Positions 9,860 through 51,502 of a DNA stretch of 59,986 bases are shown piece after piece. The DNA is from a virus (lineage: Duplodnaviria > Caudoviricetes): positions 1 through 59,986 of IMG/VR virus record IMGVR_UViG_3300022746_000173; one strand, written 5' to 3'. The position numbers were made by a program, and so were the translations under genes. Numbering within the stretch: the first letter of the stretch is position 1; the number at the start of each line of letters is the position of its first letter. The notes beneath the pieces were generated by a model, which searched no databases, was not told the origin of the DNA, and worked only from the letters and a program-made list of their open reading frames with translations.

Positions 9860-9867
9860 AATAGACT

Positions 9868-16155: not shown

Positions 16156-16165
16156 AAAGTTCTCC

Positions 16166-29555: not shown

Positions 29556-29746
29556 TACTTCTTTCTAAACACGTTAACAATGCCCATGGCAATGAACAGT
29601 GTAGATTCGATCAACCAAGACCAGCTGGTAGTTAATACAGTAACCACAATACTTATAAACATAGCTGCCATGTATATAACAACTGGCGCAAAGGCAATTA
29701 TTAATGCCCAATTCACTATTTGTTGCAAATCAACTGTGAAGGTCAT
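29555..29746 (-). CDS. Small membrane protein
   Basis: Hydrophobic; ATGA overlap with the queE stop. Confidence 0.55.
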   Translation of the reverse strand: MTFTVDLQQIVNWALIIAFAPVVIYMAAMFISIVVTVLTTSWSWLIESTLFIAMGIVNVFRKK

Positions 29747-30600
29747 TTGCCCCATCCATTTCCCCACAAGTCAACATGTAGTCGCGGGCTATAGTTGTAT
29801 CCTTTGCTTAGTGCCCAGTCTGCTACCTTTACGCGATTAGCTGCGTAAGGAGTAACAACGCCACCTTGCGGCATTACATATACTGGACCATTAAAGCCAA
29901 CAGCACGATATTGCTTAACTGCCTTATCTACTTCTTCGAAGTGTTGTTCTGTTTCCACAACAAACTTCAAGTATGTAAAGCCGTAGTCTTGATACATTCG
30001 TACAATCTCTGGGCGAATTGCTTCTTCCCATGCTTCGCCCGACGCACTTAGCTTAGGGCTTACACTAAACGTAACTTCGTTACCAGCAATGTCGCCCCAC
30101 TCGAGTAAGTAGTCAATGAACTTACCTTGCAGAGTTTGTGTACCATTTGTTTCAAATGTAATGTTACGCAAGTCTCCCATACGTTCGTGGCTCAATAGTT
30201 CTGTGTATGCACGTTGCCAACCTAGCAACGGCTCACCACCTGTAATAACCAAATGTACATCGTTGCCGTTGTCTTGTACCCAGTGTTTGTTGGGAGTTAA
30301 CGCCAACATCTGATCCACTAGGTCTTTGGTCTCAACTGTTGGACTTAGTTCTTTAAATGCTGGATGCCAACTTGCGTAGCTGTCGCAGCCTGTATTAACT
30401 AGTGGTAAGCTAAGAAAGTCTTTGTAAAGATGTACATTCTTTGCCACTTCGTCGGCCTCTGTACTTTTCTCACCCGGCGCACAACCAAAACCGGAACACG
30501 TAAAGTTACAACCGAATGTTCGAAGAAACACACTCGGTACGCCCACAAAACGGCCCTCACCTTGAGCGGAATAAAATAGTTCACTTACTTTTAATTTCAT
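29743..30600 (-). CDS. queE: 7-carboxy-7-deazaguanine synthase (radical SAM)
   Basis: ELFYSAQGEG..VG.PSVFLR..GCN..C..(insert)..CDS, VITGGEP, ETNGT, SPKL, PRLH..LWG. Confidence 0.93.
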   Translation of the reverse strand: MKLKVSELFYSAQGEGRFVGVPSVFLRTFGCNFTCSGFGCAPGEKSTEADEVAKNVHLYKDFLSLPLVNTGCDSYASWHPAFKELSPTVETKDLVDQMLALTPNKHWVQDNGNDVHLVITGGEPLLGWQRAYTELLSHERMGDLRNITFETNGTQTLQGKFIDYLLEWGDIAGNEVTFSVSPKLSASGEAWEEAIRPEIVRMYQDYGFTYLKFVVETEQHFEEVDKAVKQYRAVGFNGPVYVMPQGGVVTPYAANRVKVADWALSKGYNYSPRLHVDLWGNGWGK

Positions 30601-31244
30601 GCAAATAGGTCCTCGTTCCATTCACGGTGACCTTCACGGTACGCCATGTTACTCATTGTTTCACGCACTTCAACACGATAGCACCACAGGCGTTCTGCTT
30701 CATGTGGGCCCCACATCTCTGGAATGTAAACGCCGTTTACATATTTGTAAAGCATATCGCTAAGTGCTTCGCAACCCAATGCAGGCAAAACTACAATCTT
30801 GGCCATGTTTTTTTCTTGCAGCAGTTTAAATGTTTCCATTTCTGGGTCATCTTGTGCAACAATCAACGTATGGTCGAATTGGTCTTCCAATGTTTTCTTT
30901 AGTTCCTTGAGTCCGCCGTAGTCAGCGGCCCAGTTACGCACGTCTAGGTCATTGGTTCCAAAGTAGAACTTCATGCTAAACGCATATCCATGGATTAGAT
31001 TACAATGACTGTCTGCACGCCACTGGCGGTATGCGACTGGAAAGGCATTGTGATATTCTTTTGTACTTGTATATTGATATGAAATTGCTGGACGATAATT
31101 AAGATAACCTTCGTATTCTTTTCGCATTGCGGCCTCTACTTCTTCAGTAGCATCTATGCCTATGTTTTTTAAACCTTCGACCGCTTCGGTTGAGATTTCT
31201 ACGGTGTTTTTCTTTCGCCAGTCTTCGTATGAGTATTTTGACAT
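30597..31244 (-). CDS. queD: 6-carboxy-5,6,7,8-tetrahydropterin synthase with ~50-aa N-terminal extension
   Basis: CNLIHGY, DYG.LK, FDH, CE.L, VEVRET; adjacent to queE. Confidence 0.9.
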   Translation of the reverse strand: MSKYSYEDWRKKNTVEISTEAVEGLKNIGIDATEEVEAAMRKEYEGYLNYRPAISYQYTSTKEYHNAFPVAYRQWRADSHCNLIHGYAFSMKFYFGTNDLDVRNWAADYGGLKELKKTLEDQFDHTLIVAQDDPEMETFKLLQEKNMAKIVVLPALGCEALSDMLYKYVNGVYIPEMWGPHEAERLWCYRVEVRETMSNMAYREGHREWNEDLFA

Positions 31245-33342: not shown

Positions 33343-34047
33343 TTAACGTGGTGCAAACTCTTGTTGCAGCTTGATATTATCGAAAAATTCCTTCTTAACG
33401 CTGGCATCTGTTTTAAATGCACCTTGAAGGACGGTAGTCTGCGTAAGACTGCTGTGTGCCATAATGCCACGATTCTCACAGCATCCATGTACAGCTTGAA
33501 TGTAGACTGCTACGTTTTCGCTGTCGGTGGCCTTGCTTATTTCCCTAGCAATATCGTTGCACAACTCTTCCTGGAGAGTCCCGCGACGAGCACACCACTG
33601 AGCAATACGAGTGTACTTAGACAAACCAATAAGTTTTTGTGCGGCGATGATGCCAATGTAAGCGACACCACTAACGGGCTGATGATGGTGACTGCACATA
33701 GAGCGCAACTCACTACGTACCACCAACATACCTTCGTAGCGGTCTTCGCTGTCGTTTGGAAAAGCTGTTGCGTCTGGTGCTGCTTCATATCTACCTGCCA
33801 TAATTTCGTTGTAGTACATTTTAGCAAGACGTCTTGCTGTGCCTTTGCTGTTGGGGTCAGTCTCGCGATCGATCAACAGTGCATCAAGTACACCTTCAAA
33901 CGCCACTGTTGCTTCTTCAATAAGATAGTTCTTATTGAAGTCGTCTGTAATGTATTCGCTGATGTTATCACCTGCCCAAAAGCGTTTGTTATCTCTTTTC
34001 ATATTTTCGCGAATAACTTGCGATAGGTTTTTACTCTTTTCTGTCAT
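33343..34047 (-). CDS. folE: GTP cyclohydrolase I
   Basis: T..R.AK, SMCSHH, IGLSK..R, LQE, H.C...RG, EFF; ATG 34047 after AAGGA. Confidence 0.95.
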   Translation of the reverse strand: MTEKSKNLSQVIRENMKRDNKRFWAGDNISEYITDDFNKNYLIEEATVAFEGVLDALLIDRETDPNSKGTARRLAKMYYNEIMAGRYEAAPDATAFPNDSEDRYEGMLVVRSELRSMCSHHHQPVSGVAYIGIIAAQKLIGLSKYTRIAQWCARRGTLQEELCNDIAREISKATDSENVAVYIQAVHGCCENRGIMAHSSLTQTTVLQGAFKTDASVKKEFFDNIKLQQEFAPR

Positions 34048-34048
34048 T

Positions 34049-34657
34049 TTAATCCTTAATAGTAATGTCTCGTAAGTCCGGGTAACCAACTGAAACAGGC
34101 TTTGGTTTAAGTTCCTTAATGCCGTTAAGCAAGGCAAGACCTTGTACTGCTTCTTCTGGTGTAGGCTTATAGTGATACCCAATTGTAAATGTCTTTTGAG
34201 TCTCCCATGGACTAATGGTTAAATCTCTGCCATCGTAGCGCATACGGATCAACGACTCGTATGCTTGTTTGTCATCTAACAGTATAGCACCACCACGGCC
34301 TATATGTAAAGGTTTAGTATGACCAAAACTCAAACACTGCATCATTCCCGTCCGATACATGTTTTCTTCTAGCCGTCTAGCACTGTCCCAAATACGTGTA
34401 CCTTCAAACTTGTATTCGCCGATCCATTGTTGTCTGTGTGCCAATGTATCTGGGTAATAGTCGTATTTGATTCCCAACTTGTGCATGGTCATTGGAATGC
34501 TTAGGTAGGTATAAGGTGTAAAGGTACACTGTGTAATCTTATCATGTCGTAAACATAATTCAATTGCATGTGTGCAGCAGTCAGTCATAACTGCATATGG
34601 TGCACCTGTGAACTCTGCTAGTGCAAGTTCAAATCTTTTAATATCGTCGAATGTCAT
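34049..34657 (-). CDS. Short DegT-family PLP-dependent protein
   Basis: FE..LA...GA.YAV..D.CT.A, WDSA, SF...K....GRGG, GY.Y; only 202 aa. Confidence 0.8.
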   Translation of the reverse strand: MTFDDIKRFELALAEFTGAPYAVMTDCCTHAIELCLRHDKITQCTFTPYTYLSIPMTMHKLGIKYDYYPDTLAHRQQWIGEYKFEGTRIWDSARRLEENMYRTGMMQCLSFGHTKPLHIGRGGAILLDDKQAYESLIRMRYDGRDLTISPWETQKTFTIGYHYKPTPEEAVQGLALLNGIKELKPKPVSVGYPDLRDITIKD

Positions 34658-35303
34658 TGTGTAACCTGTTAATCATTTCTTGAGTTTTGTCTGTTTTAAT
34701 TCCTGTTATTTGGAATGTGACTCTTGGGTGGTATCCAGCATTGGCGGTGGAATGCGGCATGTTTTGCCAGTCAAACGTAATAACATCTCCTGCACGCCAT
34801 TGGCTCCAATTGTAGTTGCCAAACTGATAGAACTGTCCCATTTGCCAATCAGTGAGTGCAATAAAAATACGCATAACACTATCAGGTTGGTCCGGAGCCC
34901 ATTTGTCTAACTTGTCTATATGTAAGTTCCATAGCTCTCCGGGCAGTTGAACATGTATGCGATTCATACAGTCTTTGAGACCAAATTCATCACTGAGTTG
35001 CTGTAACGAATCAGGAATGTCCCAGTTTAGATGTGTAATGATCATGTCTGTTGGAATGCCCGCACGTTCTAGGTCTAATTCTTCGGCAGCAAGATCACTA
35101 GTGGGCCCGGCAAGGTCTTTGCCTTTGTAACCACGTGTAGCCCATGTTGCTGGTTTAGCATTAGCAACAATATCGCGTAGGTCTTTATTCCATGTTGTAG
35201 CAACACACCCTAGATGATGTATTGCATAAGATGATATATCTGTTACTGTTGGATCAAAGTGGTAGTTGCTTTTTTCCTGGGCCAATTCCCAATTACTTTT
35301 CAT
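34638..35303 (-). CDS. Fe(II)/2-oxoglutarate dioxygenase-like (DSBH) protein
   Basis: HxD (LHID), distal H (PHSTANAG) and R.T..ITG. Confidence 0.7.
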   Translation of the reverse strand: MKSNWELAQEKSNYHFDPTVTDISSYAIHHLGCVATTWNKDLRDIVANAKPATWATRGYKGKDLAGPTSDLAAEELDLERAGIPTDMIITHLNWDIPDSLQQLSDEFGLKDCMNRIHVQLPGELWNLHIDKLDKWAPDQPDSVMRIFIALTDWQMGQFYQFGNYNWSQWRAGDVITFDWQNMPHSTANAGYHPRVTFQITGIKTDKTQEMINRLHNDIRRY

Positions 35304-35923
35304 ATTACTGTTACTCTAATATCAGACTGTCCGTAATCCTGATAGTATTCGGAACTGGGCAGCTGAATGTTTAGTATATTGCACAGCATTTGATTTGTCA
35401 AAGGTATTTTCCCCATATGTCGCAACATAGAGTTGGTGATGCCTTGGTTCTGTTCTTTAATACGAATAGCCATGGTTTTTAAATCTACGTAGTGTTGATC
35501 GTACTTTGGATACGTGATATCAAAGTGTCCACACTTTACCCACCAACCAAGGCAAGCATCGTCCGGCCTGTGTACCAACACAACAGGGCACTCGGGCCAT
35601 TGTTCTTTGATGTATTCGATATTATGTTGGTGACTGAATATATGGCTCTTGATTATTCGTATACCCGATCCGCTAAATGGAGCATCGAATAGTTCTTCTG
35701 CTTTTCTTTTGGTCAGCACACTTAGGCTCTGTGGCAAGGAAAATTCCATACCTGGATCAAAGTATGCACCTAGGTGCATTAAATCCATTGTGCCACTGGC
35801 ATCGTGATAGTAAAGCCTATCCTGTTTGTAGTCACTTTGGTCTATACTGGGACTAAAGTAAATGTTCTTAACTACACTACTCCACTTAGATCCAGGCGCA
35901 CCTGCCACAAATATGTATTTCAC
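35300..35923 (-). CDS. P-loop/sulfotransferase-like protein (paralog of 37682-38266)
   Basis: GAPGSKWS, IKSH, V.R, WW...G.F...YP.Y. Confidence 0.55.
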   Translation of the reverse strand: MKYIFVAGAPGSKWSSVVKNIYFSPSIDQSDYKQDRLYYHDASGTMDLMHLGAYFDPGMEFSLPQSLSVLTKRKAEELFDAPFSGSGIRIIKSHIFSHQHNIEYIKEQWPECPVVLVHRPDDACLGWWVKCGHFDITYPKYDQHYVDLKTMAIRIKEQNQGITNSMLRHMGKIPLTNQMLCNILNIQLPSSEYYQDYGQSDIRVTVI

Positions 35924-36888
35924 TTTTTGCTTTCTGCTGCGATGATCTTGTCACCAATTGGAATCCAAATACTACGCAAGTGCTCAATATGTTGTGCAAG
36001 CCCTTTAGGGGTTAATTCGGACTGCTCAACAAAGATAAAATTGTCCTTGTAAAACTGTTGTACTTCTGCTGTCTTGATTGCCGCAGCAAAGGCCTTTTGG
36101 TACCAGTCTACAATTTCCTTAGGAGTATCAGGCGGCAAGCTCAATGCCCATGCAGCAAACACGTTGATGTATTGTCCGCCAACTCGGTATGGTTCTGCAT
36201 CTAGTCCTGCAATACGTTTATCCCCGCTGATGCCAATTAGTTTAACACGCCCTGCATCCAATAACGGTTTAGCAATGGCCACAGGCATGATACCAAATTC
36301 CATACCTGCATCACTGGCCACAGCGGTAACAGCTTGCAATGGGCCTTGGTGCTGTGCGTACTTTACTAGTTCTCTGTTACCCCGACTCTTGTCCATAATG
36401 TATTCAAACGTCATGCGATGTGCGCCTGCGCCAACTGCAAAGGTAATTGGCTTGTCGGTATTACGCAGTAGTTCGTTTAGTTCTTTCGGTGTATTGACTT
36501 TAGATGTAGGGTTAGCAACAATGGCCATTGGACTTTTGCCCATGCCTATTACATTGGTGATTGAGTTGTATTGCCATTTCTTTAGGTCTTTTTGCCATAT
36601 GTCGTTTGTAACAAACGTACCCATATAACTTGGAATACTAATAGTGTGTCCATCGGGTTCTGCTGCTGCCAATGCATTGGTTGCCAATACACTGTCTGCA
36701 CCTGGCTTTAGTTCAACAATGAACTTGACGTCAGGGTTTGCTAATTGCACTTGTTTAGCAAGTACGCGAAACCCTACTTCGTTTCCTGATCCGGGTTGGA
36801 ATCCGATTAGTACGTTAACTGGTTTGGTGGGTTGCCATGCAAACGCCAAAGCGGGGATTAGAGCCAGAATGGCCAAGAGTTTTTTCAT
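35920..36888 (-). CDS. Bug/TctC family periplasmic solute-binding protein
   Basis: Signal peptide; W.P.KPV.++.F.PG.G.E...R, KPGA, PDGHT, P..TP..+V. Confidence 0.85.
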   Translation of the reverse strand: MKKLLAILALIPALAFAWQPTKPVNVLIGFQPGSGNEVGFRVLAKQVQLANPDVKFIVELKPGADSVLATNALAAAEPDGHTISIPSYMGTFVTNDIWQKDLKKWQYNSITNVIGMGKSPMAIVANPTSKVNTPKELNELLRNTDKPITFAVGAGAHRMTFEYIMDKSRGNRELVKYAQHQGPLQAVTAVASDAGMEFGIMPVAIAKPLLDAGRVKLIGISGDKRIAGLDAEPYRVGGQYINVFAAWALSLPPDTPKEIVDWYQKAFAAAIKTAEVQQFYKDNFIFVEQSELTPKGLAQHIEHLRSIWIPIGDKIIAAESKK

Positions 36889-37685: not shown

Positions 37686-38266
37686 CGCACGATGGTAACT
37701 AGAATATCTCTGTTTTCTAGTTCTACTGTGGGACGATACCCAAAGTTATTGTAGAACCAATCAGAGTTGACGTGGCTCCATTGGGCTTGATGTCTATAGG
37801 CAAAGTCCATAATTGCAGCATTTTGTTGACGAATCTCTTTACGCATGTTTGCTTCGTCAATGTAGGCTTTGTAGTTTGGATAGTCCATGTCAAACCCACC
37901 AGCTTTGCACCACCATTCGTAGCTGGTTTCGTCTGGACGGAAAACCAGCAATATCCAATCATTGGGGTACTTTTCTTTAATTGCATCAAGATGGTACGAC
38001 CACTCGTGGCTTTTAATAAGCCGTGTATCGTTTGTGTGTTGCCAAATTGGATCAATGTATGCATCATCTAATATAGCATCAAACTCAAGACCGCGGCCAA
38101 AGTAATTTCCTTTGTTGCCACCTAATGGCCCGCCTACCCGATCGGGTGTGCGGTCTGTGGTGTTAAAGCCCGGAATCATTTCGATGTTTTGTGCAAGGCG
38201 GCTCCATCGGCTACCTGGCACTCCTGTAAAAAATATTCTACTTGGAAGTGTTATTTTGTGTACCAT
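37682..38266 (-). CDS. P-loop/sulfotransferase-like protein (paralog of 35300-35923)
   Basis: GVPGSRWS, IKSH, V.R, WW...GGF...YP.Y. Confidence 0.55.
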   Translation of the reverse strand: MVHKITLPSRIFFTGVPGSRWSRLAQNIEMIPGFNTTDRTPDRVGGPLGGNKGNYFGRGLEFDAILDDAYIDPIWQHTNDTRLIKSHEWSYHLDAIKEKYPNDWILLVFRPDETSYEWWCKAGGFDMDYPNYKAYIDEANMRKEIRQQNAAIMDFAYRHQAQWSHVNSDWFYNNFGYRPTVELENRDILVTIVR

Positions 38267-39234
38267 TTATATGCTGTATCTATAATAGTTTCTATGTCGC
38301 TGTATTTTGGAGTCCACTGAAGCCATTGTTGTGCATCAGTTGCATCAGCTATAAGTGTATCAGGGTCGCCTGCTCTGTTTGGCCCAAAGTTTACAAACGG
38401 TAACTGGTATTTGTCAGCAACGTAGGTAACGATGGTGTAATTGCTAGTCCCTTTGTTAGTGCCTAGGTTAAACACATGGCAATCTGCTACTGCTCCGGAT
38501 GCTGCTACTAATAAGTACTCTGCACCTTTGACATGGGCCTGTGCGATGTCCCATACGTGTACATAATCGCGCACACAGGTTCCGTCTGCGGTATTGTATG
38601 CTGATCCGTTTATTGTAACCGCGCGATTAGCAATACTGGCTTCTAACACACGAGCTACAATGTGTGTAGCACCAGGTTCTTGCCCTAGGTCAAAGTTAAA
38701 GGGTTCTGCACCTGCTGCATTAAAGTATCTAAAACAAATACTGTTGATCTTATATGCTAAGGCATAATCATGCAGTATATCTTCAACCATGGACTTTGTA
38801 TTACCGTATGGACTGATAGGACGTTTTGGGTGTCCTTCCTTTAACGGCAATGCATCTGGATCAGGGTCACCGTATACGCTGGCGCTAGAACTAAACATAA
38901 TCATTGGTGGACGATCCATGTCCTTGATCACATTGAGCATTTTAATTGTCTTACTGACATTGTTTTCATAATAGTCAGCGGGATCAATTACACTTGGTCC
39001 CACTAGGCTAGTGCCTGCACAATGCACAATAAAATCCGGTTGCAAGTCAATTATTGTTGACAATGATTCATCACTTGCAAAGTCATTGATAAAGAATCCA
39101 TCAATGTCTTTTAATGTATGCTCACGTAGTACACGATCAATAATGAATACTTTATCGCCGTTTTGTTTAAACGCTCGCGCGACATGGCTACCAATGTAGC
39201 CACATCCACCAGTAACGATGATTGTCTTAGACAT
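38251..39234 (-). CDS. galE: UDP-glucose 4-epimerase
   Basis: TGGCGYIGSH, YY.NN, FSSSA.VYG, PYG.TK, RYFNAAGA, DGTCVRDYVHV.D.A.AH, R.GD. Confidence 0.92.
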   Translation of the reverse strand: MSKTIIVTGGCGYIGSHVARAFKQNGDKVFIIDRVLREHTLKDIDGFFINDFASDESLSTIIDLQPDFIVHCAGTSLVGPSVIDPADYYENNVSKTIKMLNVIKDMDRPPMIMFSSSASVYGDPDPDALPLKEGHPKRPISPYGNTKSMVEDILHDYALAYKINSICFRYFNAAGAEPFNFDLGQEPGATHIVARVLEASIANRAVTINGSAYNTADGTCVRDYVHVWDIAQAHVKGAEYLLVAASGAVADCHVFNLGTNKGTSNYTIVTYVADKYQLPFVNFGPNRAGDPDTLIADATDAQQWLQWTPKYSDIETIIDTAYKWYTK

Positions 39235-39416
39235 TAGGCCTTCTTTGCTTCGGCCCGTGCGTTCTTAGTTTCGGTAATTTCGTTACGGCGAGCTTTAACT
39301 GCCTTGGCTAATTCCTGTAATGCTTTACGAGCACGAGTGCCTGCTGCATTGTTACCTGCTTCAAACTTTTCGCTCTCTGCTACGTATGCATCGAAGTGTA
39401 CCTTTAAATCTGTCAT
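39234..39416 (-). CDS. Histone H1-like Hc1 family small basic protein
   Basis: KF..GN.AAGTRARK.LQEL.K..K..R.EI...K. Confidence 0.8.
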   Translation of the reverse strand: MTDLKVHFDAYVAESEKFEAGNNAAGTRARKALQELAKAVKARRNEITETKNARAEAKKA

Positions 39417-39430
39417 TTTATTTTCCTTTG

Positions 39431-40096
39431 TTAAGCGTTTAAATTTTTAGTTAAGCCACGCCACTGCTTAACTGTTTCTTTGATGGGAGTTCCATCTTCT
39501 AACCATGCTTTGCCTGTCCACTCTAGCTTCTTCCAATTTGGAAAAGGCCAAGCGTCAATGACAGACATTTCGCATTCGTAAATTCCTAAGTGCACTGGCT
39601 TTACTTTACCATCAAACCAGTCAGTTACTTCTAGTTCAACTTCAACTGGCAGTTCCATGGTATGCACAACTGTGGCAGGATCGATTGTTCCGCTCCACTC
39701 TTGCCCTGTGTCCAAATTGGTCAGCTTCATTGGGCCATTGAAATAGAATTCGCAGTCGTCTTGGCTCCAACCTTCGCTTTCTAAACCCTCATACCATTGA
39801 TCGTTCCACAGCTCTTGTAGACGTTCTTGTTCTTCTTCGGGCATAGTATCCGGAAAAGTCCATTCAGTCCAGCAACCATCGTTGAGCTCATTTAATTCCC
39901 AGTCGTATCCGTCACCGTCAATTTGATAATCGTTGTCTTCGTTTACTAAATCAATTTCGGGTTTGGTATCGCTTTCGCAGATAAACGTACCCCAACGAAA
40001 TCCTTCTAGTTTGCGAATAACTTGGCCATCTTTGTACCATAGCTGTACTTCAATTGCACTCTTTTTATGTTCGGCAGTTAATTCCCACTTAGCCAT
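39431..40096 (-). CDS. Acidic hypothetical protein
   Basis: 221-aa ORF; C-terminal TDWF...KPV..G.YE...W.G..W...WRGL domain. Confidence 0.7.
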   Translation of the reverse strand: MAKWELTAEHKKSAIEVQLWYKDGQVIRKLEGFRWGTFICESDTKPEIDLVNEDNDYQIDGDGYDWELNELNDGCWTEWTFPDTMPEEEQERLQELWNDQWYEGLESEGWSQDDCEFYFNGPMKLTNLDTGQEWSGTIDPATVVHTMELPVEVELEVTDWFDGKVKPVHLGIYECEMSVIDAWPFPNWKKLEWTGKAWLEDGTPIKETVKQWRGLTKNLNA

Positions 40097-40281
40097 TATA
40101 AATCCTTTAAGTTTTTTAACATTACGTATTGGTCAAATAAATTAACCAATTCGGTGTCACCACCTAAGTACCAATCGCTAGCAGCTTTTAGGCTTAGGGC
40201 TTTTAGTTGGTCTTCGGTTAGGTTGGGATATTTCTCCCCAGCTAATGTTAACCAAATATCTTGTTTAGTACTTAGACTCAT
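40096..40281 (-). CDS. Hypothetical protein
   Basis: ATG 40281 overlaps the end of the glycosyltransferase. Confidence 0.55.
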   Translation of the reverse strand: MSLSTKQDIWLTLAGEKYPNLTEDQLKALSLKAASDWYLGGDTELVNLFDQYVMLKNLKDL

Positions 40282-41455
40282 GTGTATGTTTGCGGTAGTC
40301 TGTTGACATACGCAACCACTGTTCGCCTTTGCCTTCGATAATGTCAACAATACGATCTGCTGTGCCACTGGTCCATGCACTGATCTTGCCCATGTTCTCG
40401 CTTGGCTTCTGCAACAGTTTCTCTAGCTTGTCTAGTGCATCTTCTATGCTCCAGGGTACGTACATACGTGTATGATCGTTTGCAAAACTTTCAGGGAAAC
40501 TGCGATAAGCAGGATAAAGTACATTACATCCCAAAGCGTCAGCTTCGGAGACAGTGTTGGAGACCCAATCTTGTAATGCACAATTAAAAACAACACGGCT
40601 ATCGTTAACAATATCATAGTACTGATTCTTTTCTAAATCTTCGTAAATAGTCAACAATCCTGCTGCCTGCATACCACGTGTGCGTTCCATGTAGCTGTTG
40701 TTATTGCTCTTAAGTGCTGCGCCTGAGCAAACTGCAAACTCTACACCGCTACCAGGATGGCGTTCATGCCATGCTTTGATAACATCCATGTAGAAGTCTG
40801 GTTGCTTCTCTTGGTCCCATCGTGCGCTAAACACTACACGATGCTTACGTTCATTAAATGGGCGAACATTGTTGTCAACACGCTCACGCACTTCTTCTGT
40901 GTTAAACACCAAGCCTGAAATGTTGTAGATTGGACAATCCCAACCTGCAATCTTCATGTTCATGACCATTTCTTCGTTGGTTGCCAGAACAGCACCCCCA
41001 GATTTCTTAACAAGCTCGCAAACCATTTGTTCATACAAGCCCATCCATTTGCTCATGCCCCATACGTGGACAAAATCGTCGGGATCGATCGACTGAGCCA
41101 AACACCTAACAAAAATGCGAGGGCGTAGATTATCTGGAACTTGATCGAGGATGTACGGTAATGATTCAATACCCGGCTGAAACATGTCTTCAAAGTAGAT
41201 AACGTCATCTTTAGTTACTGCTCCTTGTTGCATTAATCGAACCAAGTTCATTAGCTGGCTCATGCCAAAGTAACTGCGACCGTGTGCATCAAGCACTTGC
41301 CCAGTTACAATCTTTTGGCTGTTGTCTAGTGTAAGACCTGGAACATAAACAGTTTCAACACCACGGCGATCAAATACACGCTTATTCCATTCTGTTAGTT
41401 GCAGGGTGTAGCGAGCTTTGTAGCTTTCTAGGCCCATGTAATATAGTTTACTCAT
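40265..41455 (-). CDS. GT-B (family 4-like) glycosyltransferase
   Basis: VVF.ARW..EKQP, Y..+...S.V....A.QD.....V.EA...GC....P....FPE. Confidence 0.8.
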   Translation of the reverse strand: MSKLYYMGLESYKARYTLQLTEWNKRVFDRRGVETVYVPGLTLDNSQKIVTGQVLDAHGRSYFGMSQLMNLVRLMQQGAVTKDDVIYFEDMFQPGIESLPYILDQVPDNLRPRIFVRCLAQSIDPDDFVHVWGMSKWMGLYEQMVCELVKKSGGAVLATNEEMVMNMKIAGWDCPIYNISGLVFNTEEVRERVDNNVRPFNERKHRVVFSARWDQEKQPDFYMDVIKAWHERHPGSGVEFAVCSGAALKSNNNSYMERTRGMQAAGLLTIYEDLEKNQYYDIVNDSRVVFNCALQDWVSNTVSEADALGCNVLYPAYRSFPESFANDHTRMYVPWSIEDALDKLEKLLQKPSENMGKISAWTSGTADRIVDIIEGKGEQWLRMSTDYRKHTHESKY

Positions 41456-41873
41456 TTTTTGATTTTCCGCCCAAATTTGGTATAGTTAAGCCAGAATTTA
41501 TTTGACGTAATACTTCTCGATCAATGCTTTGTGCTAGGTTTTGAGCCGCGTTGGTTGAGTAATATGTGTCTGGTACATTCCAGCTTGCCTTGTAATATTT
41601 GTCTTTTTGCTCGGCATAGTGATGGTCACGCTTCATTTCCATCTCTAGTCTGTCTAGTCGACGAATAATGTTATTTTGATCATCTAATACTCGACGTAAC
41701 GGCCCAATTACCTTTTGTCCAGTTTCGGGCGCGGTTAAAATGACCATCATCATTAAACTACGCAAAGCGTTAGTTACACGCTCGTCTCGACTGGTCAGTG
41801 CTTGATCAAACATGTCAACGAACCTGTCCAGATCGAAGTCATCCTGATCTTTCATTCTAGCTGCGCCCGTCAT
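41448..41873 (-). CDS. Hypothetical protein
   Basis: TAATG-coupled 141-aa ORF. Confidence 0.6.
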   Translation of the reverse strand: MTGAARMKDQDDFDLDRFVDMFDQALTSRDERVTNALRSLMMMVILTAPETGQKVIGPLRRVLDDQNNIIRRLDRLEMEMKRDHHYAEQKDKYYKASWNVPDTYYSTNAAQNLAQSIDREVLRQINSGLTIPNLGGKSKNE

Positions 41874-42139
41874 TATCTGTACTTCCAGTTAGTGTTGCGG
41901 TCACGTGGTTTGAACTCAGTACGTTCACGACGTGGGCTACGCCATTGGTCCCATGGTTCGCGACCTTTGGTGTACTTGATGTACTCTGCGTATGCAGGCT
42001 TACGCTCGTTGTATAGATGCGATTCGTCGAATACGTATCCGTATGCTACGCAAAACTTCTTGAATGATTCAAGATCTTCAAAAATGTCCCGAACTTCGGG
42101 TTTCATTTTCAAGTACTTTTGCAAGTGCTCATTTGCCAT
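41873..42139 (-). CDS. Hypothetical phage protein
   Basis: IFEDLE.F..FC..YG..FDE..LY motif; AAGGA SD. Confidence 0.7.
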   Translation of the reverse strand: MANEHLQKYLKMKPEVRDIFEDLESFKKFCVAYGYVFDESHLYNERKPAYAEYIKYTKGREPWDQWRSPRRERTEFKPRDRNTNWKYR

Positions 42140-42148
42140 TTTATTTCC

Positions 42149-42589
42149 TTAAATGCTAATCATTTGTGGGCGGTGAGTTTCATATTTAACGAGTGCGCCG
42201 TTTTCACCATCTTCGGCTACCTCGATCCAGACATTACGTCCAGGATACTTTGCTGAGATTTGCAAGTACAAATCATCTGACATCATTTCACATGACTTAA
42301 AGTCAAGCTGTAGTGTTCCGTCTCTGTAGAGATTTTCGAGCCAGCGTTTAAACTGGATAAACTCAATGTCTCTGTCGTTGTGGAATACGTCGATCCATAC
42401 TCTAAAGTGGAAGATATGGCGATGAGGAACACCCAAGAAAGACACATCATATTCATCGCCGGTCGCCAAAGCGGGATCAGTTGCTGCGGCTGGATATTTG
42501 TGAATACCTTCCTTACGAAAAGTGACCCAGATCTTTCGCTCTGCATTGTGTTTAATTCTTTCGTGCATGTCTCTTTGTTCTTGATTCAT
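42149..42589 (-). CDS. QueD-like T-fold protein, DpdL-type candidate CDG decarboxylase
   Basis: EG.H...LGVPHRHIF (LxxxHRHxF in place of QueD CxxxHGH), RDIEF, SCE, V.EDGENG. Confidence 0.75.
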   Translation of the reverse strand: MNQEQRDMHERIKHNAERKIWVTFRKEGIHKYPAAATDPALATGDEYDVSFLGVPHRHIFHFRVWIDVFHNDRDIEFIQFKRWLENLYRDGTLQLDFKSCEMMSDDLYLQISAKYPGRNVWIEVAEDGENGALVKYETHRPQMISI

Positions 42590-43092
42590 AATGGTTTATC
42601 TTTAGTGTATTGTGACCAATCCGTAAAGGTGGAACGATCTCTAAGGTTGTGTAAGCTATGACACCAGACTCCTGGATTAGTTGCAGCAAAGTCTTTGTCG
42701 TCGAGCTTGATTGTAGCATTATAGCCTAGCAGTTGTACATAGGGCAATTTCACCGAAATCATTGGGATAAAATTATTGTATTCACATAGACTACCTTCAA
42801 CTAACCCTTCCACACAACTAACATCAATGTCTAATGTGCACATGTAACCTTGTTTTAGATAGTGTGCAATCATATTTTCCCACTCATTCCATACTGGATC
42901 GTTTATTGCAGGATTAGGAAAGCTCATGTTGGCACCAAAGTAAATATGCTGACCCGGTTTGGATAACCTAGCAGTGATTTCACTAGTAGGTTGAACACCG
43001 ACAACAAATAGTGTATCCATACCATATGCGGGAGTATGCTCTACTTCAACACCGGTAAAGAAGTTAACATCTTCATGTCCTTGTCTGATCAT
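42586..43092 (-). CDS. Hypothetical protein coupled between the TGT-like and QueD-like genes
   Basis: FTG.EVEHT..G..TLFVVG, HIYFGAN.SF, KLDD.DF...NPGVW. Confidence 0.75.
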   Translation of the reverse strand: MIRQGHEDVNFFTGVEVEHTPAYGMDTLFVVGVQPTSEITARLSKPGQHIYFGANMSFPNPAINDPVWNEWENMIAHYLKQGYMCTLDIDVSCVEGLVEGSLCEYNNFIPMISVKLPYVQLLGYNATIKLDDKDFAATNPGVWCHSLHNLRDRSTFTDWSQYTKDKPL

Positions 43093-44728
43093 TTTCTAAA
43101 TCCTCTAATTTGTTTTCGTTTAAGTCTGGTTCTACGTATTCGAACAAGTGATTAAACAAAGTGTTTGCATTGGTTGTTTTTTCGCCTTTAAAACCTCGGG
43201 TACCAACAATTTGATTCCAATAACCGGTCTTTCTAGCATACTTTGGATCATCGATGATATCTAGTGCAGCTTGCTTAGTGGGTGCAGCAAAGATACGTTC
43301 GACAATGTCTTCAAAGTACTCGTAATCGGCACCATCGTGTCGCATCATTGCTGGATGCTCGCCTGCGTCAAAACGTCTGTTGGCTTCTTGTACAGCAGTC
43401 AAGTGCATCCATACATTGTGACCCATTAGTAGTGCATAGCTAAAACTATCCCACGATGTTGCACCTTCTTTACCTATCTTATTTAGGTCGCCGGGCTTGT
43501 AAACACAAATATCTTTTATTGTCCACATATCACTAAGTGGACTTTCTTCCCAGCTGGGATAGATACCGTCTTGTACTACTCCTTGACTCCACTTGCGTGT
43601 GTCTGTTGAGTATTTTTTATCGTCGGCGCTTGGGGCCATTCGGTAGCTCCATTTGCTGTCGTGCTCGAAGACGTTTTGGAAATAGACCTGCCCATTCGCA
43701 GTCGCCAAAAACGGACTAGCACAATCAAAGCTAATAGTAAAAGAAGGATTGACATATTTTCTCACTGCTCGTTGAATAACTGTGAGTAGAACTGCCCACT
43801 CCAGTTTGCTTGTACCCAAGAAGTGCATCCAATCATGTTTACCTTCTTGTAGTAAGTTGTCGTAACGTAATGCCACTAGTCGTTTTAATACCAGCTGCAC
43901 GTCACACATGTTTTGACCTCCCATGGCCCATCCATCAAAGTGAGTGTCTGGGTATACAGTTGGGTCACAAAACTCTTTCATTTCTTGATACCAGTCTTCG
44001 GCTGACGTATGATTGTCACCTTGTAACACGTTTAAGAACTTGGCTCCGCCATTCTTGACTCCTTTACGATGCTTCATAAAGTATAGGTTGTTGTACTTGG
44101 TTGCTGCAACTGCTTCTTCTAGGGTGCTGATACCACAAGCCTTGCTGGCCTTTTTGTCATGTATAACCCAAGTTGGAATATCAAGAATCATTCCATAGTC
44201 AGCAATACCGTCTAGCCATTTAAGTACGCCATCACGTTTCTTTTGCGCGGCATCTAACAACTTCTGATAATCTGCCAATGGATCAACTACAACAGTTTTG
44301 TTTTTAGCATTGGTTACAGTATGAGTGCCCTGTGCTGTTAACTGTGCAATCTTGTCTTGTACTTCTTTACTGTTTGGATCGCGCCAATCGCCTTCCCAAA
44401 GACCCTTTGCAATCTGGAACCCGCCCGAATCGCCGAGAATAAACGTATCAGGATCTCTATTCCGGACCATATCTTCTGACCAATCTTGCTTTGTAAGGTC
44501 AAGGTTTGCATGACCACCTGAATAGAGACTCCACTTATAAGGGAATAAAGCCTTAGTGGCATTGAGCCAGTTAAGCTGCTCCATATCCGTAAGACCGTTA
44601 GGAAATCTTTTCGGATCGACATAATGTTCGTTCCTTTGTTTACCTACGAATGTAGCATAGAACCCACTGATAGCGGGCAAGAATACTGCGTAATCTTTTT
44701 GTTTATTTGTTAAATTATCTTGGCTCAT
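43073..44728 (-). CDS. tRNA-guanine transglycosylase (TGT)-fold protein; candidate DNA 7-deazaguanine transglycosylase (DpdA-like)
   Basis: TGT motifs in order: DSGGFQ, M.LD.P, VLQG, DG.A.GG, HFLG, FDC..P, HN; no CxCxxC zinc site. Confidence 0.85.
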   Translation of the reverse strand: MSQDNLTNKQKDYAVFLPAISGFYATFVGKQRNEHYVDPKRFPNGLTDMEQLNWLNATKALFPYKWSLYSGGHANLDLTKQDWSEDMVRNRDPDTFILGDSGGFQIAKGLWEGDWRDPNSKEVQDKIAQLTAQGTHTVTNAKNKTVVVDPLADYQKLLDAAQKKRDGVLKWLDGIADYGMILDIPTWVIHDKKASKACGISTLEEAVAATKYNNLYFMKHRKGVKNGGAKFLNVLQGDNHTSAEDWYQEMKEFCDPTVYPDTHFDGWAMGGQNMCDVQLVLKRLVALRYDNLLQEGKHDWMHFLGTSKLEWAVLLTVIQRAVRKYVNPSFTISFDCASPFLATANGQVYFQNVFEHDSKWSYRMAPSADDKKYSTDTRKWSQGVVQDGIYPSWEESPLSDMWTIKDICVYKPGDLNKIGKEGATSWDSFSYALLMGHNVWMHLTAVQEANRRFDAGEHPAMMRHDGADYEYFEDIVERIFAAPTKQAALDIIDDPKYARKTGYWNQIVGTRGFKGEKTTNANTLFNHLFEYVEPDLNENKLEDLENDQTRT

Positions 44729-45338
44729 AATAATAGTTTGCTGATTTAATTAAAGTGTAATCAGCGTAATATCTGTCGATGATCTTAGCACGTAACATAG
44801 GATCTTGTTCGATCTTAAAGCGCATGAAATTAGATAGCTTGTTGGTATCGTAATTGTCTTCGCTGGCGTTACCGACTATAGGTTTATTTAGACCTAGTTG
44901 ATATCCTAAGAAACTTTCTAGATTCATACCCAGCTCGTGATTGAGTTTAAAGTATGTAATTTTTCTATCACCTAGCTGGTTAACAAATTTTACTTGTTCA
45001 GTTGTGTGGTCGTCAAATACAATTTGATCGAATATTAAGCGTTCAGTTAGGCTATTGTAGTCCTCACGAAAGTGATCACTGCCATAACCTTCACCTAATA
45101 ACCAGCTGGCTGCATATGTAGCAAAGCCGCTGATCCAACGCTCTACTGGGTCACGTAGTACAACTATACATTCCTTGATATCAGGGCTGTATACATCATT
45201 GTGGCGCCAATCACTGTCTACAAATAAATTAGTTAGATAGGTACTAGCATTCTTAGGAATGTTTAGGTAAAAAATCCCAGTAGGGGAAAGTAATCCACTA
45301 CCGGGTCTATACCCCCTAGATACTAAGTTATCTAACAT
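44715..45338 (-). CDS. Sulfotransferase family protein
   Basis: 5'-PSB-like IPKNAST and 3'-PB-like VLRDPVERWISG, H...Q, Y..D. Confidence 0.8.
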   Translation of the reverse strand: MLDNLVSRGYRPGSGLLSPTGIFYLNIPKNASTYLTNLFVDSDWRHNDVYSPDIKECIVVLRDPVERWISGFATYAASWLLGEGYGSDHFREDYNSLTERLIFDQIVFDDHTTEQVKFVNQLGDRKITYFKLNHELGMNLESFLGYQLGLNKPIVGNASEDNYDTNKLSNFMRFKIEQDPMLRAKIIDRYYADYTLIKSANYYYEPR

Positions 45339-46069
45339 TACTTTTGTTGAGCAGGGATAATGTATGAATATTGTGCAATACCGCTGTCAACGGTGATCAT
45401 TGATGCGCCTTCGTCACTGATTTTAAATGTCTTGTCGCCAGGCAATCCAAGGATGCTGATAACAGCATTAACAGGCCAAGCCCATGCTTTGGTTAATGTG
45501 CCAGTTACGTTGTTGTCAAATACAAAGTTACCTGCGTGACTTGATGCATCACCAAAGAAAAACTTTAACGCACCGTTTTCAGTTTTGGCAGTAAACGTAG
45601 TTTCTTCGCTGTTGGCACTGGCCATGAACTTCATACGTTGAATGCTTGCATTAGTTGGAACCATATCTACGTTCCACTTAACACCTTTGAACTTAATTGC
45701 CTTGAGTTTGTCGTTAACAACTTCAGCCATCATAAAGCGATAGTCGTTTTTAAAGTCGCCGTTTTTGTTTTCAAAGTGAATACCGACTGGTACTTCTTCG
45801 TTGTTGCGAACTTGTTTGTTGATGCTTAATTGTGCATCTTCTTTGTATTCTGGAATATTGAGAATAGTGTTTAGCTTGTTCAAGTTTGGCATACCAAATG
45901 TGCCAACAAACTCTGGCACAGGGTTTTTAAATTTAGCTTCAACAATAACGCTGCGGTCTTCTGCAATAGCGTTGATGCTGGTGTCGTTACTGTCTCCGGT
46001 AACTTTTACCAAATCAATCATGCCTAGTCCAAAGGTGTGTTGTACGATATCTGATAAGTAATCTTTCAT
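45338..46069 (-). CDS. Probable DNA polymerase sliding clamp (gp45/PCNA-like)
   Basis: 243 aa with two-domain alpha/beta pattern, FG+.NL..L..+L, C-terminal ISDEG....Y.YI.P; near the polymerase; TAAATA and GGAG upstream. Confidence 0.65.
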   Translation of the reverse strand: MKDYLSDIVQHTFGLGMIDLVKVTGDSNDTSINAIAEDRSVIVEAKFKNPVPEFVGTFGMPNLNKLNTILNIPEYKEDAQLSINKQVRNNEEVPVGIHFENKNGDFKNDYRFMMAEVVNDKLKAIKFKGVKWNVDMVPTNASIQRMKFMASANSEETTFTAKTENGALKFFFGDASSHAGNFVFDNNVTGTLTKAWAWPVNAVISILGLPGDKTFKISDEGASMITVDSGIAQYSYIIPAQQK

Positions 46070-46119: not shown

Positions 46120-47061
46120 TTACAGATCTGCTCTTTTTGATATTTCGCCTAATGCTTGATGAGCTTTAATTGTCTTTAATTGACCGGGCTTTTTAATTTC
46201 CAACCAACTAATATTAGTGCTAGGTGAATAATCTGCAACTAATTCAAATCCCAAGCTATAACATAGCGGTAATAGGATGCTCTTAGGCATGTATGTTTGT
46301 GCAAAGTTCTCTGCCATACCTGCGCCAGCGGGGGTGTCGCCGTCGTTGTATGTAAATAGAAAAACTCCGCCCGGACGCATGAGTATATGCAATTGTTTTA
46401 AAAACTGATGCATAGTATCCAAGCTGACATAATTAAAGAATCCCCAACTAAACACAAACCCAAATTGGTTATGGGGCAACATGGTTATGTCGTTGTTCTT
46501 TAAAATGTATTTTCTAAGTCTAGACTGGTACGGTCCCGGAAACTGACTGTTTGTTGAATCCAAGAACTCTTGATATTGATCAACTACATACAGTGGATCA
46601 GCTGCAACCAAATATTTGGTCCACTCTCCGTCACGGCAACCGATCTCCAAACCAGGATACTTCCAGTTACTATAAAGATTTATTCGATCTTTAACTATAC
46701 TGGCAACATCGCTGGTTGGAATAAAAACTCTTCCGTACCTAACGTTATCAAACGATCCATGTCTGGTTTCTAATTCGTAGTTGTTGCTAAACAATTCCCT
46801 AGTTACTGTAGAAATTTCGTCGTCGATCAATTTAATTCGTTGGCTACACTCATTTGCAGTAGCCTGCGTTTGGGCAATAATGTTTTCGTATGCGGCTATG
46901 AGATTATCAATATAACCCGTATGATGCTCGGGTATAGAGGTTACATCTATCTTGATATCTCTTAGCTTACGACAAAGATTATTTAAATCAGTCAGAGTAT
47001 CATCGACGTTAACGGTGTTAACCAATGACTCCTTGAGTTTGACTAAGTTATATAATCCCAC
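46120..47061 (-). CDS. Class I SAM-dependent methyltransferase with N-terminal coiled coil
   Basis: LEIGCRDG, F..VFS...F.Y, MRPGG.F.FTY. Confidence 0.8.
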   Translation of the reverse strand: MGLYNLVKLKESLVNTVNVDDTLTDLNNLCRKLRDIKIDVTSIPEHHTGYIDNLIAAYENIIAQTQATANECSQRIKLIDDEISTVTRELFSNNYELETRHGSFDNVRYGRVFIPTSDVASIVKDRINLYSNWKYPGLEIGCRDGEWTKYLVAADPLYVVDQYQEFLDSTNSQFPGPYQSRLRKYILKNNDITMLPHNQFGFVFSWGFFNYVSLDTMHQFLKQLHILMRPGGVFLFTYNDGDTPAGAGMAENFAQTYMPKSILLPLCYSLGFELVADYSPSTNISWLEIKKPGQLKTIKAHQALGEISKRADL

Positions 47062-51127: not shown

Positions 51128-51502
51128 TTACTGTTTTAATTGTTCTGGATTGTTCTGGTTAAAGTTACGCATAACTACACCGGCTTCGCTGTTGGCTTCG
51201 TTTTCTTGGGGAGTACCAGTTTCTCCTGCACCGTCTGTAAGGTCGCCGTTTAAGTCTTGACGATAGTGAACTAGTTCATGTGCAAGTGTACGCATAACAT
51301 CAACTGGATGTCTATTACCAACAACTAGATATAGTTTCTTTTCGCTTGGGCTGTATGTACCAAAGCTAGTTGTGACAGGTTGGTTTAAGTATTCTATCTC
51401 GCAAGGTTTTTCTAATCCCAGTTCTTTGCAGATCCAAGGAAGATGAGTTTTTATTAGTTCTACTGTGGAACTACTTTCTCTTAAGAAATCTTTTGCTCTC
51501 AT
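51128..51502 (-). CDS. Zincin-like metallopeptidase
   Basis: FG.Y...RTLAHELVH..Q...E.EA. Confidence 0.8.
   Translation of the reverse strand: MRAKDFLRESSSTVELIKTHLPWICKELGLEKPCEIEYLNQPVTTSFGTYSPSEKKLYLVVGNRHPVDVMRTLAHELVHYRQDLNGDLTDGAGETGTPQENEANSEAGVVMRNFNQNNPEQLKQ

Follow-up and report, generated by a model that had tools for sequence, protein, structure and literature searches.

Which base does a phage place in its DNA when a glycosyltransferase gene lies among its genes for making and inserting 7-deazaguanine? The question is raised by a gene run at positions 38251 to 44728 of IMG/VR virus record IMGVR_UViG_3300022746_000173, a 59,986-base virus fragment (the window, in full), about 14% of a genome by the CheckV estimate. 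Judged by homology, the deazaguanine core of this run is already known as the DpdL-type, QueC-less 7-deazaguanine system of Cui et al. 2023 (PMC10516641). The new part is a constant glycosyltransferase (GT) partner, which predicts an undescribed DNA base. The reading that we favour, and hold at about even confidence, is that the window carries the QueC-less DpdL-type module of an uncultured jumbo phage with an integral GT4-type GT, and that the virion DNA contains a sugar-bearing 7-deazaguanine. The genes of the module, with lengths in amino acids (aa), are as follows.

43073..44728, minus strand: candidate DpdA3-type DNA guanine transglycosylase of the TGT superfamily, 551 aa (homology to PA5oct QCG76197.1, motifs, hhalign)
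42586..43092, minus strand: 168-aa protein, a recurrent, dispensable accessory (no family match in Pfam, PHROGs or NCBIfam)
42149..42589, minus strand: DpdL, 146 aa, QueD-like T-fold, proposed decarboxylase of 7-carboxy-7-deazaguanine (CDG) (phrog_17812, E 4e-36; LxxxHRHxF)
40265..41455, minus strand: GT4-like GT-B glycosyltransferase, 396 aa (AlphaFold2 model and Foldseek)
38251..39234, minus strand: UDP-glucose 4-epimerase GalE, 327 aa, possible donor supply (TIGR01179, 284.4 bits against an equivalog cut-off of 262.3, residues 5-326)
33343..34182, minus strand: GTP cyclohydrolase I, FolE (PF01227, E 1e-39; NF006824, E 6e-40)
30597..31244, minus strand: QueD, PTPS-type CPH4 synthase (PF01242, E 3.5e-14; 52% identity to ACP17 QueD)
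29743..30621, minus strand: QueE-like radical SAM enzyme, CDG synthase (five NCBIfam QueE models, E 1e-11 to 2e-9, all below their cut-offs)

An earlier note on this DNA had described a packed run past the clamp gene, comprising a sulfotransferase, a TGT-fold protein, the 168-aa protein, a QueD-like (DpdL-like) protein, two small open reading frames (ORFs), a GT-B glycosyltransferase and galE. All of these ORFs are present in that arrangement on the minus strand, and by the homologies given below the DpdL-like assignment is upheld and the TGT-fold assignment is supported indirectly. The same note had proposed to follow the GT across genomes; it turned out to be DpdL-linked in every context sampled, six lineages of isolated phages included.

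IMG/VR stretches matching the transglycosylase (TGT) and the GT number at least 598 each. Gene orders were retained for 160 related metagenomic loci, and the presence of each protein was counted by tblastn over 162 loci. The order kept in the 160 loci is polymerase - (methyltransferase) - clamp - (sulfotransferase) - TGT - (168 aa) - DpdL - 88 aa - (141 aa) - GT - ... - FolE - QueD - QueE. As the same order recurs across all of them, it is not due to chance. Clade loci anchored on the TGT, with at least 6 kb downstream, contain both DpdL and the GT in 42 of 42 cases. DpdL lies within 4 kb of the GT in all 47 GT-anchored clade loci with flanks of at least 3 kb, and the TGT is found in all 34 with flanks of at least 6 kb. 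This linkage within the clade is largely a matter of shared descent.

More distant relatives, 31-33% identical to the window GT, show the same neighbourhood. One GT representative (33% identical) is found in 12 loci, with DpdL touching the GT in every one and FolE nearby. Two further distant representatives contribute six loci, with DpdL directly upstream in five and the sixth contig ending inside the GT, so that DpdL stands beside the GT in 17 of 18 distant loci. Five of these 18, annotated with Pfam, belong to phages of 52-98 kb that encode a family A polymerase fused to UDG, as against the family B polymerase of the window. No viral locus was retrieved for another GT representative, P0269. 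GTs 61-74% identical to that of the window are also encoded on four contigs (L187-L190) in Haliscomenobacter, Phycisphaerae, Syntrophomonadaceae and Chitinophagales metagenome-assembled genomes (MAGs). DpdL and the TGT were confirmed in the two of them with flanks of at least 3 kb, and all four are most likely jumbo-phage contigs binned into bacterial MAGs.

Six lineages of isolated phages, namely PA5oct, ACP17, Phosso, X1, BCSR5 and BUCT-ZZ01, carry the GT within their deazaguanine cluster. In BUCT-ZZ01 the order is FolE, a GT-like gene, DpdA, DpdL and GT, the GT being 63% identical to that of the window and directly after DpdL. ACP17 has FolE, a homologue of the 168-aa protein, DpdA, GT, DpdL and QueE; PA5oct has TGT, GT and DpdL, followed at a distance by QueE; and X1 has GT, DpdA, DpdL and QueE. 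Phosso encodes clamp, one further gene, DpdL and GT, then FolE and QueE further on, with its TGT about 170 kb away. BCSR5 has QueD and DpdL, then a PIG-L deacetylase, one further gene, GT and DpdA, and later QueE. The GT profile finds the cluster gene in five of five isolates tested (X1, BCSR5, Phosso, ACP17 and PA5oct; E 5e-56 to 4e-29). It has no match in the whole genomes of five other DpdL phages (phiST, RHph_I1_18, Bakedbeans, Ahp1 and D479), and a profile search assigns these five GT-less phages a short phiST-type DpdA. DpdL phages thus split into a GT type and a GT-less type, and DNA has been measured only for the GT-less type. Cui et al. 2023 (PMC10516641) class PA5oct, ACP17, BUDD and BCSR5 as DpdL phages. 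We make no class-level claim that DpdA class tracks the presence of the GT, since the same authors file the long form of PA5oct under DpdA3 as well.

Sugar-nucleotide genes recur near the GT, with GalE in the window, an epimerase-like fragment in PA5oct and the PIG-L deacetylase in BCSR5. The latter gene is accompanied by one for a PAPS-reductase-like protein, both between DpdL and GT (L171:9261-10628), and X1 encodes a PAPS-reductase-like protein after FolE (L168:3843-4376). The combination of a GT4 enzyme with a PIG-L protein recalls the transfer of GlcNAc followed by deacetylation, as in mycothiol synthesis.

The GT itself was modelled with AlphaFold2 from an alignment of 55 diverse relatives (pLDDT 94.4, pTM 0.91), and the model adopts a GT-B fold of two Rossmann domains. 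Foldseek returned at least 500 PDB matches at E <= 0.001. The best solved structures are the retaining GT4 enzymes MshA and BshA, followed by glycogen synthase, GlgM, PimA, LmbT, SenB and OtsA, with E 1.4e-12 and a TM of 0.64 against 3c4q, E 3.4e-11 against 6n1x, and sequence identities of 9-14%. On the strength of this predicted structure, the protein is a GT4-type GT-B glycosyltransferase. Its nearest predicted viral structures are an unnamed 370-aa protein and the GT of ACP17, well ahead of generic viral GTs. The family profile matches WlaC (E 1.7e-4) across an R-x-D-x-E-K-x-P stretch. The alignment of the 55 relatives holds 14 invariant and 25 near-invariant columns, and, by its conservation, the enzyme appears active and specific. 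Positions conserved at 90% or more are divided between the acceptor-side (N-terminal) domain, with 20, and the donor-side domain, with 19. Because the acceptor side is as conserved as the donor side, we infer that one acceptor is probably conserved throughout the family.

Neither a T4-type nor a QTMAN-type family was recovered. The window GT has four Pfam families at E <= 1, and the alpha- and beta-glucosyltransferases of T4 are not among them. QTMAN_N (PF12038), the mark of the queuosine mannosyltransferase QTMAN / GTDC1, is likewise absent from these four, and from the 25 families, out of 42, that are listed for the 55 relatives, as searched with HMMER only. The isoelectric points (pI) are uninformative on DNA binding, with family medians of 5.8 for the GT and 5.7 for the TGT, and a predicted complex of GT and DpdL scored 0.00, which has no bearing either way. 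The family is large, with at least 7,995 protein clusters at 90% identity matching the GT and 786 representatives at 50% identity.

The 146-aa protein bears the DpdL signature LxxxHRHxF (L52-G-V-P-H56-R57-H58-I-F60), and L52, H56, R57, H58 and F60 do not vary in any of the 29 relatives aligned. According to Cui et al. 2023 (PMC10516641), this motif, in place of the CxxxHGH of QueD, sets DpdL apart. By tblastn, the window protein is 31.7% identical to the phiST protein (E 2e-9), 59% to PA5oct QCG76199.1 and 55% to the ACP17 protein, all three of which are entered as DpdL in table DS1 of that study. In Bakedbeans (L169:7182-8363) and MA9V-3 (L174:7428-8312), DpdL forms the C-terminal part of longer proteins of 393 and 294 aa, respectively, whose N-terminal parts have no family match. 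FolE, QueD and QueE are encoded on the same strand, 4-9 kb past the GalE end of the run, and the QueE-like protein is 46.6% identical to BUCT-ZZ01 QueE (E 2e-82). QueC had no match in the window, which covers about 14% of the genome. In five larger contigs from the clade, of which three are 92-100% complete, no match reached the Pfam cut-off, and the three matches seen below it had 14 bits. By these homologies the QueC-less CDG branch, FolE with QueD and QueE, is present. For FolE, QueD, QueE, DpdL and DpdA without QueC, Cui et al. 2023 (PMC10516641) predict 2'-deoxy-7-deazaguanosine (dDG), which was measured in phiST.

The 551-aa protein is a candidate DpdA3-type transglycosylase on indirect grounds. 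It has no match in Pfam, PHROGs, NCBIfam or PDB by HMMER, either as a single sequence or as a profile, and none of 30 family members matches the TGT models PF01702 or TIGR00449 even at E up to 10. With PA5oct QCG76197.1, a protein entered as DpdA3 in table DS1 of Cui et al. 2023 (PMC10516641), it shares 34% identity (E 5e-80). Its family profile aligns to the DpdA2-type set formed by the DpdA proteins of ACP17, X1, BCSR5 and BUCT-ZZ01 with an hhalign probability of 93.9% (E 1.6e-7, 270 columns), and ACP17 DpdA in turn matches TIGR00449 tgt_general (E 4.6e-7). The motif DSGGFQ begins at residue 100 and FDCAS at residue 334, with D100, S101, G102, G103, F104, Q105, D335 and S338 invariant across 30 aligned sequences. 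We take DSGGxQ and the Asp of the FDC-type motif to be the catalytic motifs of the TGT superfamily. As a lead only, ESM Atlas matches the protein to a cluster (score 0.92), 17% of whose members have PF01702. Similarity to the short phiST-type DpdA3 is weak (hhalign probability 8.9%, E 0.0037), and the phiST protein was likewise recognised only through HHpred (Cui et al. 2023, PMC10516641). A 596-aa relative of the window TGT is encoded in Vibrio phage 2.275.O (L165, 7905-14931) beside QueF, a YhhQ-type transporter, a queuosine biosynthesis gene (possibly QueC), a nucleophile aminohydrolase and FolE. Because this relative sits among QueF and FolE genes in the absence of DpdL (and of this GT), the long TGT form probably works in a preQ1-type pathway as well.

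Together these enzymes would form a short pathway. By homology to the published pathway, FolE, QueD and QueE would convert GTP to CDG, DpdL would carry CDG towards 7-deazaguanine, and the DpdA3-type enzyme would swap guanine in DNA for the deazapurine. We postulate that the GT, with a UDP-hexose that may be supplied by GalE, adds a sugar to the deazapurine, and that the virion DNA would then carry a sugar-bearing 7-deazaguanine, not plain dDG. Whether the sugar would be attached to the free base beside DpdL, before insertion, or on the DNA as in T4 is a question on which we lean modestly towards the free base. We do so because the GT stays beside DpdL in Phosso although the TGT is about 170 kb off, because the best solved matches of the GT act on small molecules (MshA, BshA, LmbT, SenB and OtsA), because only a base fits the DpdL pocket according to the supplement of Cui et al. 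2023 (PMC10516641), and because a free 7-deazapurine base is the acceptor of HuiG in the huimycin pathway. The wider proposal, that guanine in the DNA of the clade, a very common one of giant phages, and of PA5oct, ACP17, Phosso, X1, BCSR5 and BUCT-ZZ01 is replaced by a sugar-bearing 7-deazaguanine made by DpdL and GT as a pair acting on the free base, is one we hold at a little less than even confidence. For the linkage, one option is that the sugar donor captures the carbon that decarboxylation of CDG frees; the C7-linked glycoside so formed could be inserted by a TGT-type enzyme in the way that the eukaryotic TGT inserts the bulky base queuine. An N2-glycoside as in huimycin would be the other option.

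The 168-aa protein fared differently from the GT. The earlier note had proposed that the two add a further group to the inserted base, and that their co-occurrence with the TGT clade be examined. The GT was linked to DpdL wherever it was sampled, which supports that reading in part; the 168-aa protein is no constant partner. It was found in 100 of 162 loci, is absent from the whole sub-clade in which the TGT gene abuts DpdL, and no homologue was found in PA5oct, X1, BCSR5 or BUCT-ZZ01. Because of these absences, as far as homology can tell, it cannot be required and would be an optional accessory. Outside the clade, homologues were seen only in ACP17 (E 1e-19, between FolE and DpdA) and in five of 12 small-phage loci, just ahead of the GT; Phosso has a weak match to a 121-aa ORF (E about 0.001-0.004). 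A 177-aa protein of Phosso at the same position, a 'glycosylase', is unrelated (hhalign probability 0.2%). The alignment of the 168-aa family has 48 invariant columns rich in His, Glu and Asp, and the AlphaFold2 model has a pLDDT of 80.2. Its fold could not be assigned convincingly. The best Foldseek match, RNase Z, has E 0.099; the best VIA-align matches (Z 6.2; STAS, metallo-beta-lactamase and QueE) lie within the range that this tool regards as common arrangements; and an Endonuclease_NS lead from ESM Atlas (score 0.88, 147-154 shared features) is under the tool's own trust marks.

Several points weigh against the reading that we favour. The window GT is below the Pfam cut-offs (PF13524, 22.6 bits against 25; PF00534, E 0.018); of its 55 relatives, 47 do match PF00534 at E <= 1, at best 4.5e-10. 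The TGT assignment of the 551-aa protein leans on profile comparison and motifs. The independent evidence for linkage comes down to some 8-10 lineages rather than hundreds. An ordinary O-glycoside would need a hydroxyl or carboxyl group, which 7-deazaguanine lacks, so that only N2 or the pyrrole carbons are available and the linkage would be unusual. In the account of Cui et al. 2023 (PMC10516641), the only DpdL phages measured, phiST and its relatives (which lack this GT), have plain dDG; the decarboxylase activity of DpdL is unproven there, and DpdL and DpdA of phiST and ACP17 yielded no dDG in E. coli. In the genomes of five small phages, two of them complete with terminal repeats, there are GT, DpdL and FolE genes and no match to PF01702 or to the DpdA2-type or phiST-type profile. 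The sugar, its linkage and its presence in the virion are all inferred from genes.

The GT might also act otherwise. It could belong to the pathway while its sugar never ends in DNA, as a transient glycosylated intermediate or as a free, huimycin-like glycoside acting on the host, with plain dDG or nothing in the DNA. We consider this unlikely. In its favour, GTs beside folE/queD/queE yield free N2-glycosylated 7-deazapurines in the HuiG and dapiramicin pathways (PMC7439116; bioRxiv 10.64898/2026.04.15.718813), the best solved matches are small-molecule enzymes, and the five small genomes lack a detectable DpdA. Against it, a TGT or DpdA gene lies one to five genes from the GT in the window clade, in two metagenomic contigs (L191/L192) and in PA5oct, ACP17, X1, BCSR5 and BUCT-ZZ01, and the cassette is located in replication modules. 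Moreover, in all 16 of the small-phage loci without a detectable DpdA (L175-L186 and L193-L196; for example L178:9383-10384, L185:9161-10051 and L194:6676-7587), the gene after the GT, either immediately next to it or up to about 1.5 kb away, belongs to a conserved, unfamiliar family of proteins of 280-630 aa, and L191/L192, whose GT relative is P0258, have a TGT-type gene in that place. This family has no Pfam match and no hhalign link to the three DpdA profiles; it may be a new or further diverged base-inserting enzyme. PA5oct DNA also behaves as G-modified: it resists cleavage at several G-containing restriction sites, from which an END-nuclease preprint infers a modified G, with no mass given (PMC12191111).

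It is decidedly unlikely, in our view, that the module is an ordinary phiST-like dDG module and that the GT, carried along in an early-gene block, serves phage or host surface glycans or protein glycosylation. GT4 enzymes often act on glycans, dDG offers no obvious acceptor group, and the DegT, epimerase/dehydratase and carbamoyltransferase genes at 4311-11921 suggest glycan work elsewhere in the window. A passenger, however, would not stay beside DpdL across unrelated replication modules (family B versus family A polymerases) and across gene orders, and the DpdL phages without it would not be precisely the ones with the short phiST-type DpdA. Among viral structures, moreover, the GT is closest to the GTs of other DpdL clusters. 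We give the lowest standing, as improbable, to the version in the earlier note, in which the 168-aa protein and the GT would add GalE-derived galactose to the inserted base on DNA, like the glucosylation of hydroxymethylcytosine in T-even phages. DNA-acting GT-B enzymes do exist in those phages, GalE is a true equivalog and a frequent neighbour (99 of 162 loci, many of them fragmentary), the 168-aa and TGT genes have 20 bases in common, and in ACP17 the homologue of the former is immediately next to DpdA. The gaps in the distribution of the 168-aa protein and its weak Phosso match count against this version, as does the lack of any T4-type DNA glucosyltransferase family among the matches of the GT. 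An epimerase-like fragment, moreover, was found in the annotated cluster flank of PA5oct only, among the six isolated GT lineages. That galactose is supplied by way of GalE is itself a guess. A sugar-bearing 7-deazaguanine in the virion DNA remains the reading that we favour.

The module is embedded among further genes of the same region.

47065-49728, minus strand: family B DNA polymerase (nearest are the Phosso and Atu_ph07 polymerases)
46120-47061, minus strand: methyltransferase (position in the run, between the polymerase and clamp-like genes)
45338..46069, minus strand: clamp-like protein, 243 aa, upstream neighbour of the module (phrog_12062, E 5e-32)
44715..45338, minus strand: sulfotransferase-like protein, 207 aa, a variable accessory (PF03567, E 7.3e-5, 23.5 bits against a cut-off of 22, barely above)
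41873..42139, minus strand: basic 88-aa protein, pI 9.35 (142 of 162 loci by tblastn)
41448..41873, minus strand: 141-aa protein, sporadic (24 of 162 loci by tblastn; zero family matches)
39431..40096, minus strand: very acidic 221-aa protein, pI 4.2 (weak phrog_26541 match only; 23 of 162 loci by tblastn)
39234..39416, minus strand: Hc1-type histone-like protein, 60 aa (PF07432, E 7e-15; 38 of 162 loci by tblastn)

In the direction of transcription, the order is polymerase, methyltransferase, clamp-like protein, sulfotransferase-like protein, the 551-, 168-, 146-, 88-, 141- and 396-aa proteins, the acidic 221-aa protein, the Hc1-type protein and GalE. All genes of the region are on the minus strand, and by ORF coordinates neighbours overlap by 1-20 bases or sit 9 bases apart. 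The nearest relatives of the polymerase are those of Sinorhizobium phage Phosso (52%) and Agrobacterium phage Atu_ph07 (48%); since these are giant-phage polymerases, we read the window as a piece of an uncultured jumbo phage. By BLASTP, the clamp-like protein is 36% identical to PA5oct gp314 and 35% to the annotated sliding clamp of Phosso. A megablast search of 38251-46069 against the phage collection found zero relatives at the nucleotide level. A promoter-like site (46119-46090, 11 of 12 matches) lies just upstream of the clamp-like gene; such sites are not enriched relative to shuffled sequence, and a scan of the window for promoters and terminators found no excess (23 versus 22.7 and 10 versus 7.9, respectively).

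The sulfotransferase-like protein was detected in 33 of 162 loci, and the 88-aa protein is confined to the clade, with no homologue in isolated phages. The best reading of the 168-aa protein, and likewise of the sulfotransferase-like protein and the small ORFs, is as a lineage-specific accessory. Bakedbeans, a DpdL phage without the GT, encodes a second weak Sulfotransfer_2-like protein (L169:5382-6053, E 0.0014) just upstream of FolE, which echoes the sulfotransferase-like gene of the window. At the other end of the window, positions 22-11921 form a sugar-tailoring block with a radical SAM enzyme (22-972), two DUF6071/GDSL-like proteins, a carbamoyltransferase (4311-5795), an APS-kinase-like P-loop protein (5795-6229), a DegT aminotransferase (9868-10971) and an epimerase/dehydratase (10953-11921). 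This block could build a modified nucleotide sugar and, taken with the sulfotransferase-like gene, gives a hint of a sugar that is decorated or sulfated. At 34049-35303 lies a 202-aa ORF whose match to DegT/DnrJ aminotransferases is only partial; it shares about 130 bases with the long FolE ORF and is directly adjacent to a 221-aa protein of no known family. The order GalE, DegT fragment and FolE recurs in many clade loci (61 of 162 by tblastn), and the fragment may be a split or shortened aminotransferase. Elsewhere in the window, an HNH/NUMOD3 homing-endonuclease-like gene (11918-12499) separates the epimerase/dehydratase gene from that for thymidylate synthase. Cargo that is unusual in a phage comprises a Bax1-I/TMBIM-family membrane protein (15463-16227, E 5e-54), a homologue of TctC-type tricarboxylate-binding receptors (35920-36888, E 4e-16) and a ferritin-like protein (51499-51936, E 8e-20).

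To our knowledge, the sugar-bearing DNA bases described so far are pyrimidines (glucosyl- and arabinosyl-hydroxymethylcytosine and base J), and no sugar-bearing deazaguanine in DNA is reported by title or abstract in the literature searched. If the favoured reading is true, the base would be the first glycosylated purine in any DNA and a new class of hypermodification, and would involve new enzymology, with a GT4 enzyme acting on a deazapurine and a transglycosylase handling its product. It would explain why DpdL and DpdA alone yielded no dDG in E. coli, and it would name the G modification of PA5oct, a therapeutic candidate phage sensed by END nucleases (PMC12191111). The GT gene family is widespread, and the prediction can be tested by mass spectrometry on cultured phages.

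Among known systems, phiST (PMC10516641) resembles the window in its FolE, QueD, QueE, LxxxHRHxF DpdL and DpdA-class transglycosylase, in the absence of QueC and in a position beside DNA polymerase genes. In contrast to the window, phiST has no member of the GT family genome-wide, a P-loop kinase-like gene instead of the GT, and a DpdA3 of 259 aa as compared to 551 aa. PA5oct (QCG76197 DpdA3, QCG76198 GT, QCG76199 DpdL and QCG76203 QueE) resembles the window in its order of polymerase, clamp-like, TGT, GT, DpdL and QueE genes; the TGT is 34% and DpdL 59% identical, and the GT is matched by profile (E 4e-29). It differs in having the GT between TGT and DpdL, in lacking homologues of the 168-aa and 88-aa proteins, and in a phosphoribosyltransferase gene within the cluster. 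The GT, QCG76198 included, goes unmentioned in the main text of Cui et al. 2023 (PMC10516641) and in the supplement examined. Phosphoribosyltransferase genes were seen in the clusters of PA5oct (L002:10946-11380) and BUCT-ZZ01 (L001:4093-4554), and none in the window; their presence suggests a nucleotide-level deazapurine route beside or instead of base exchange.

The T4 alpha- and beta-glucosyltransferases share the GT-B fold with the window GT, and in such systems a phage DNA base receives a UDP-sugar-derived sugar as a counter-defence (PMC13216743). Unlike what we propose here, their acceptor is the hydroxymethyl group of a pyrimidine on DNA; the window GT has no Pfam match to their families, and its viral fold list contains phage proteins named DNA alpha-GT at no better than ranks 17 and 46, with a TM of about 0.5. 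HuiG of Kutzneria albida, which transfers a sugar from UDP-GlcNAc onto the exocyclic N2 of a 7-deazaguanine-type base in huimycin synthesis (PMC7439116; bioRxiv 10.64898/2026.04.15.718813), and the dapiramicin enzyme are, like the window GT, encoded beside folE/queD/queE homologues. The HuiG system differs in being a bacterial secondary-metabolite cluster with QueC (preQ0), no transglycosylase and a free product, and the likeness considered here is one of gene context and proposed chemistry. The best solved structural matches of the window GT are MshA and BshA, the retaining GT4 UDP-GlcNAc transferases of mycothiol and bacillithiol synthesis, whose acceptors are inositol phosphate and malate and whose genomic context is unrelated. 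MshA with MshB, and BshA with BshB, are pairs of a GT and a PIG-L-type deacetylase, the same kind of pair as that encoded in the deazaguanine cluster of BCSR5.

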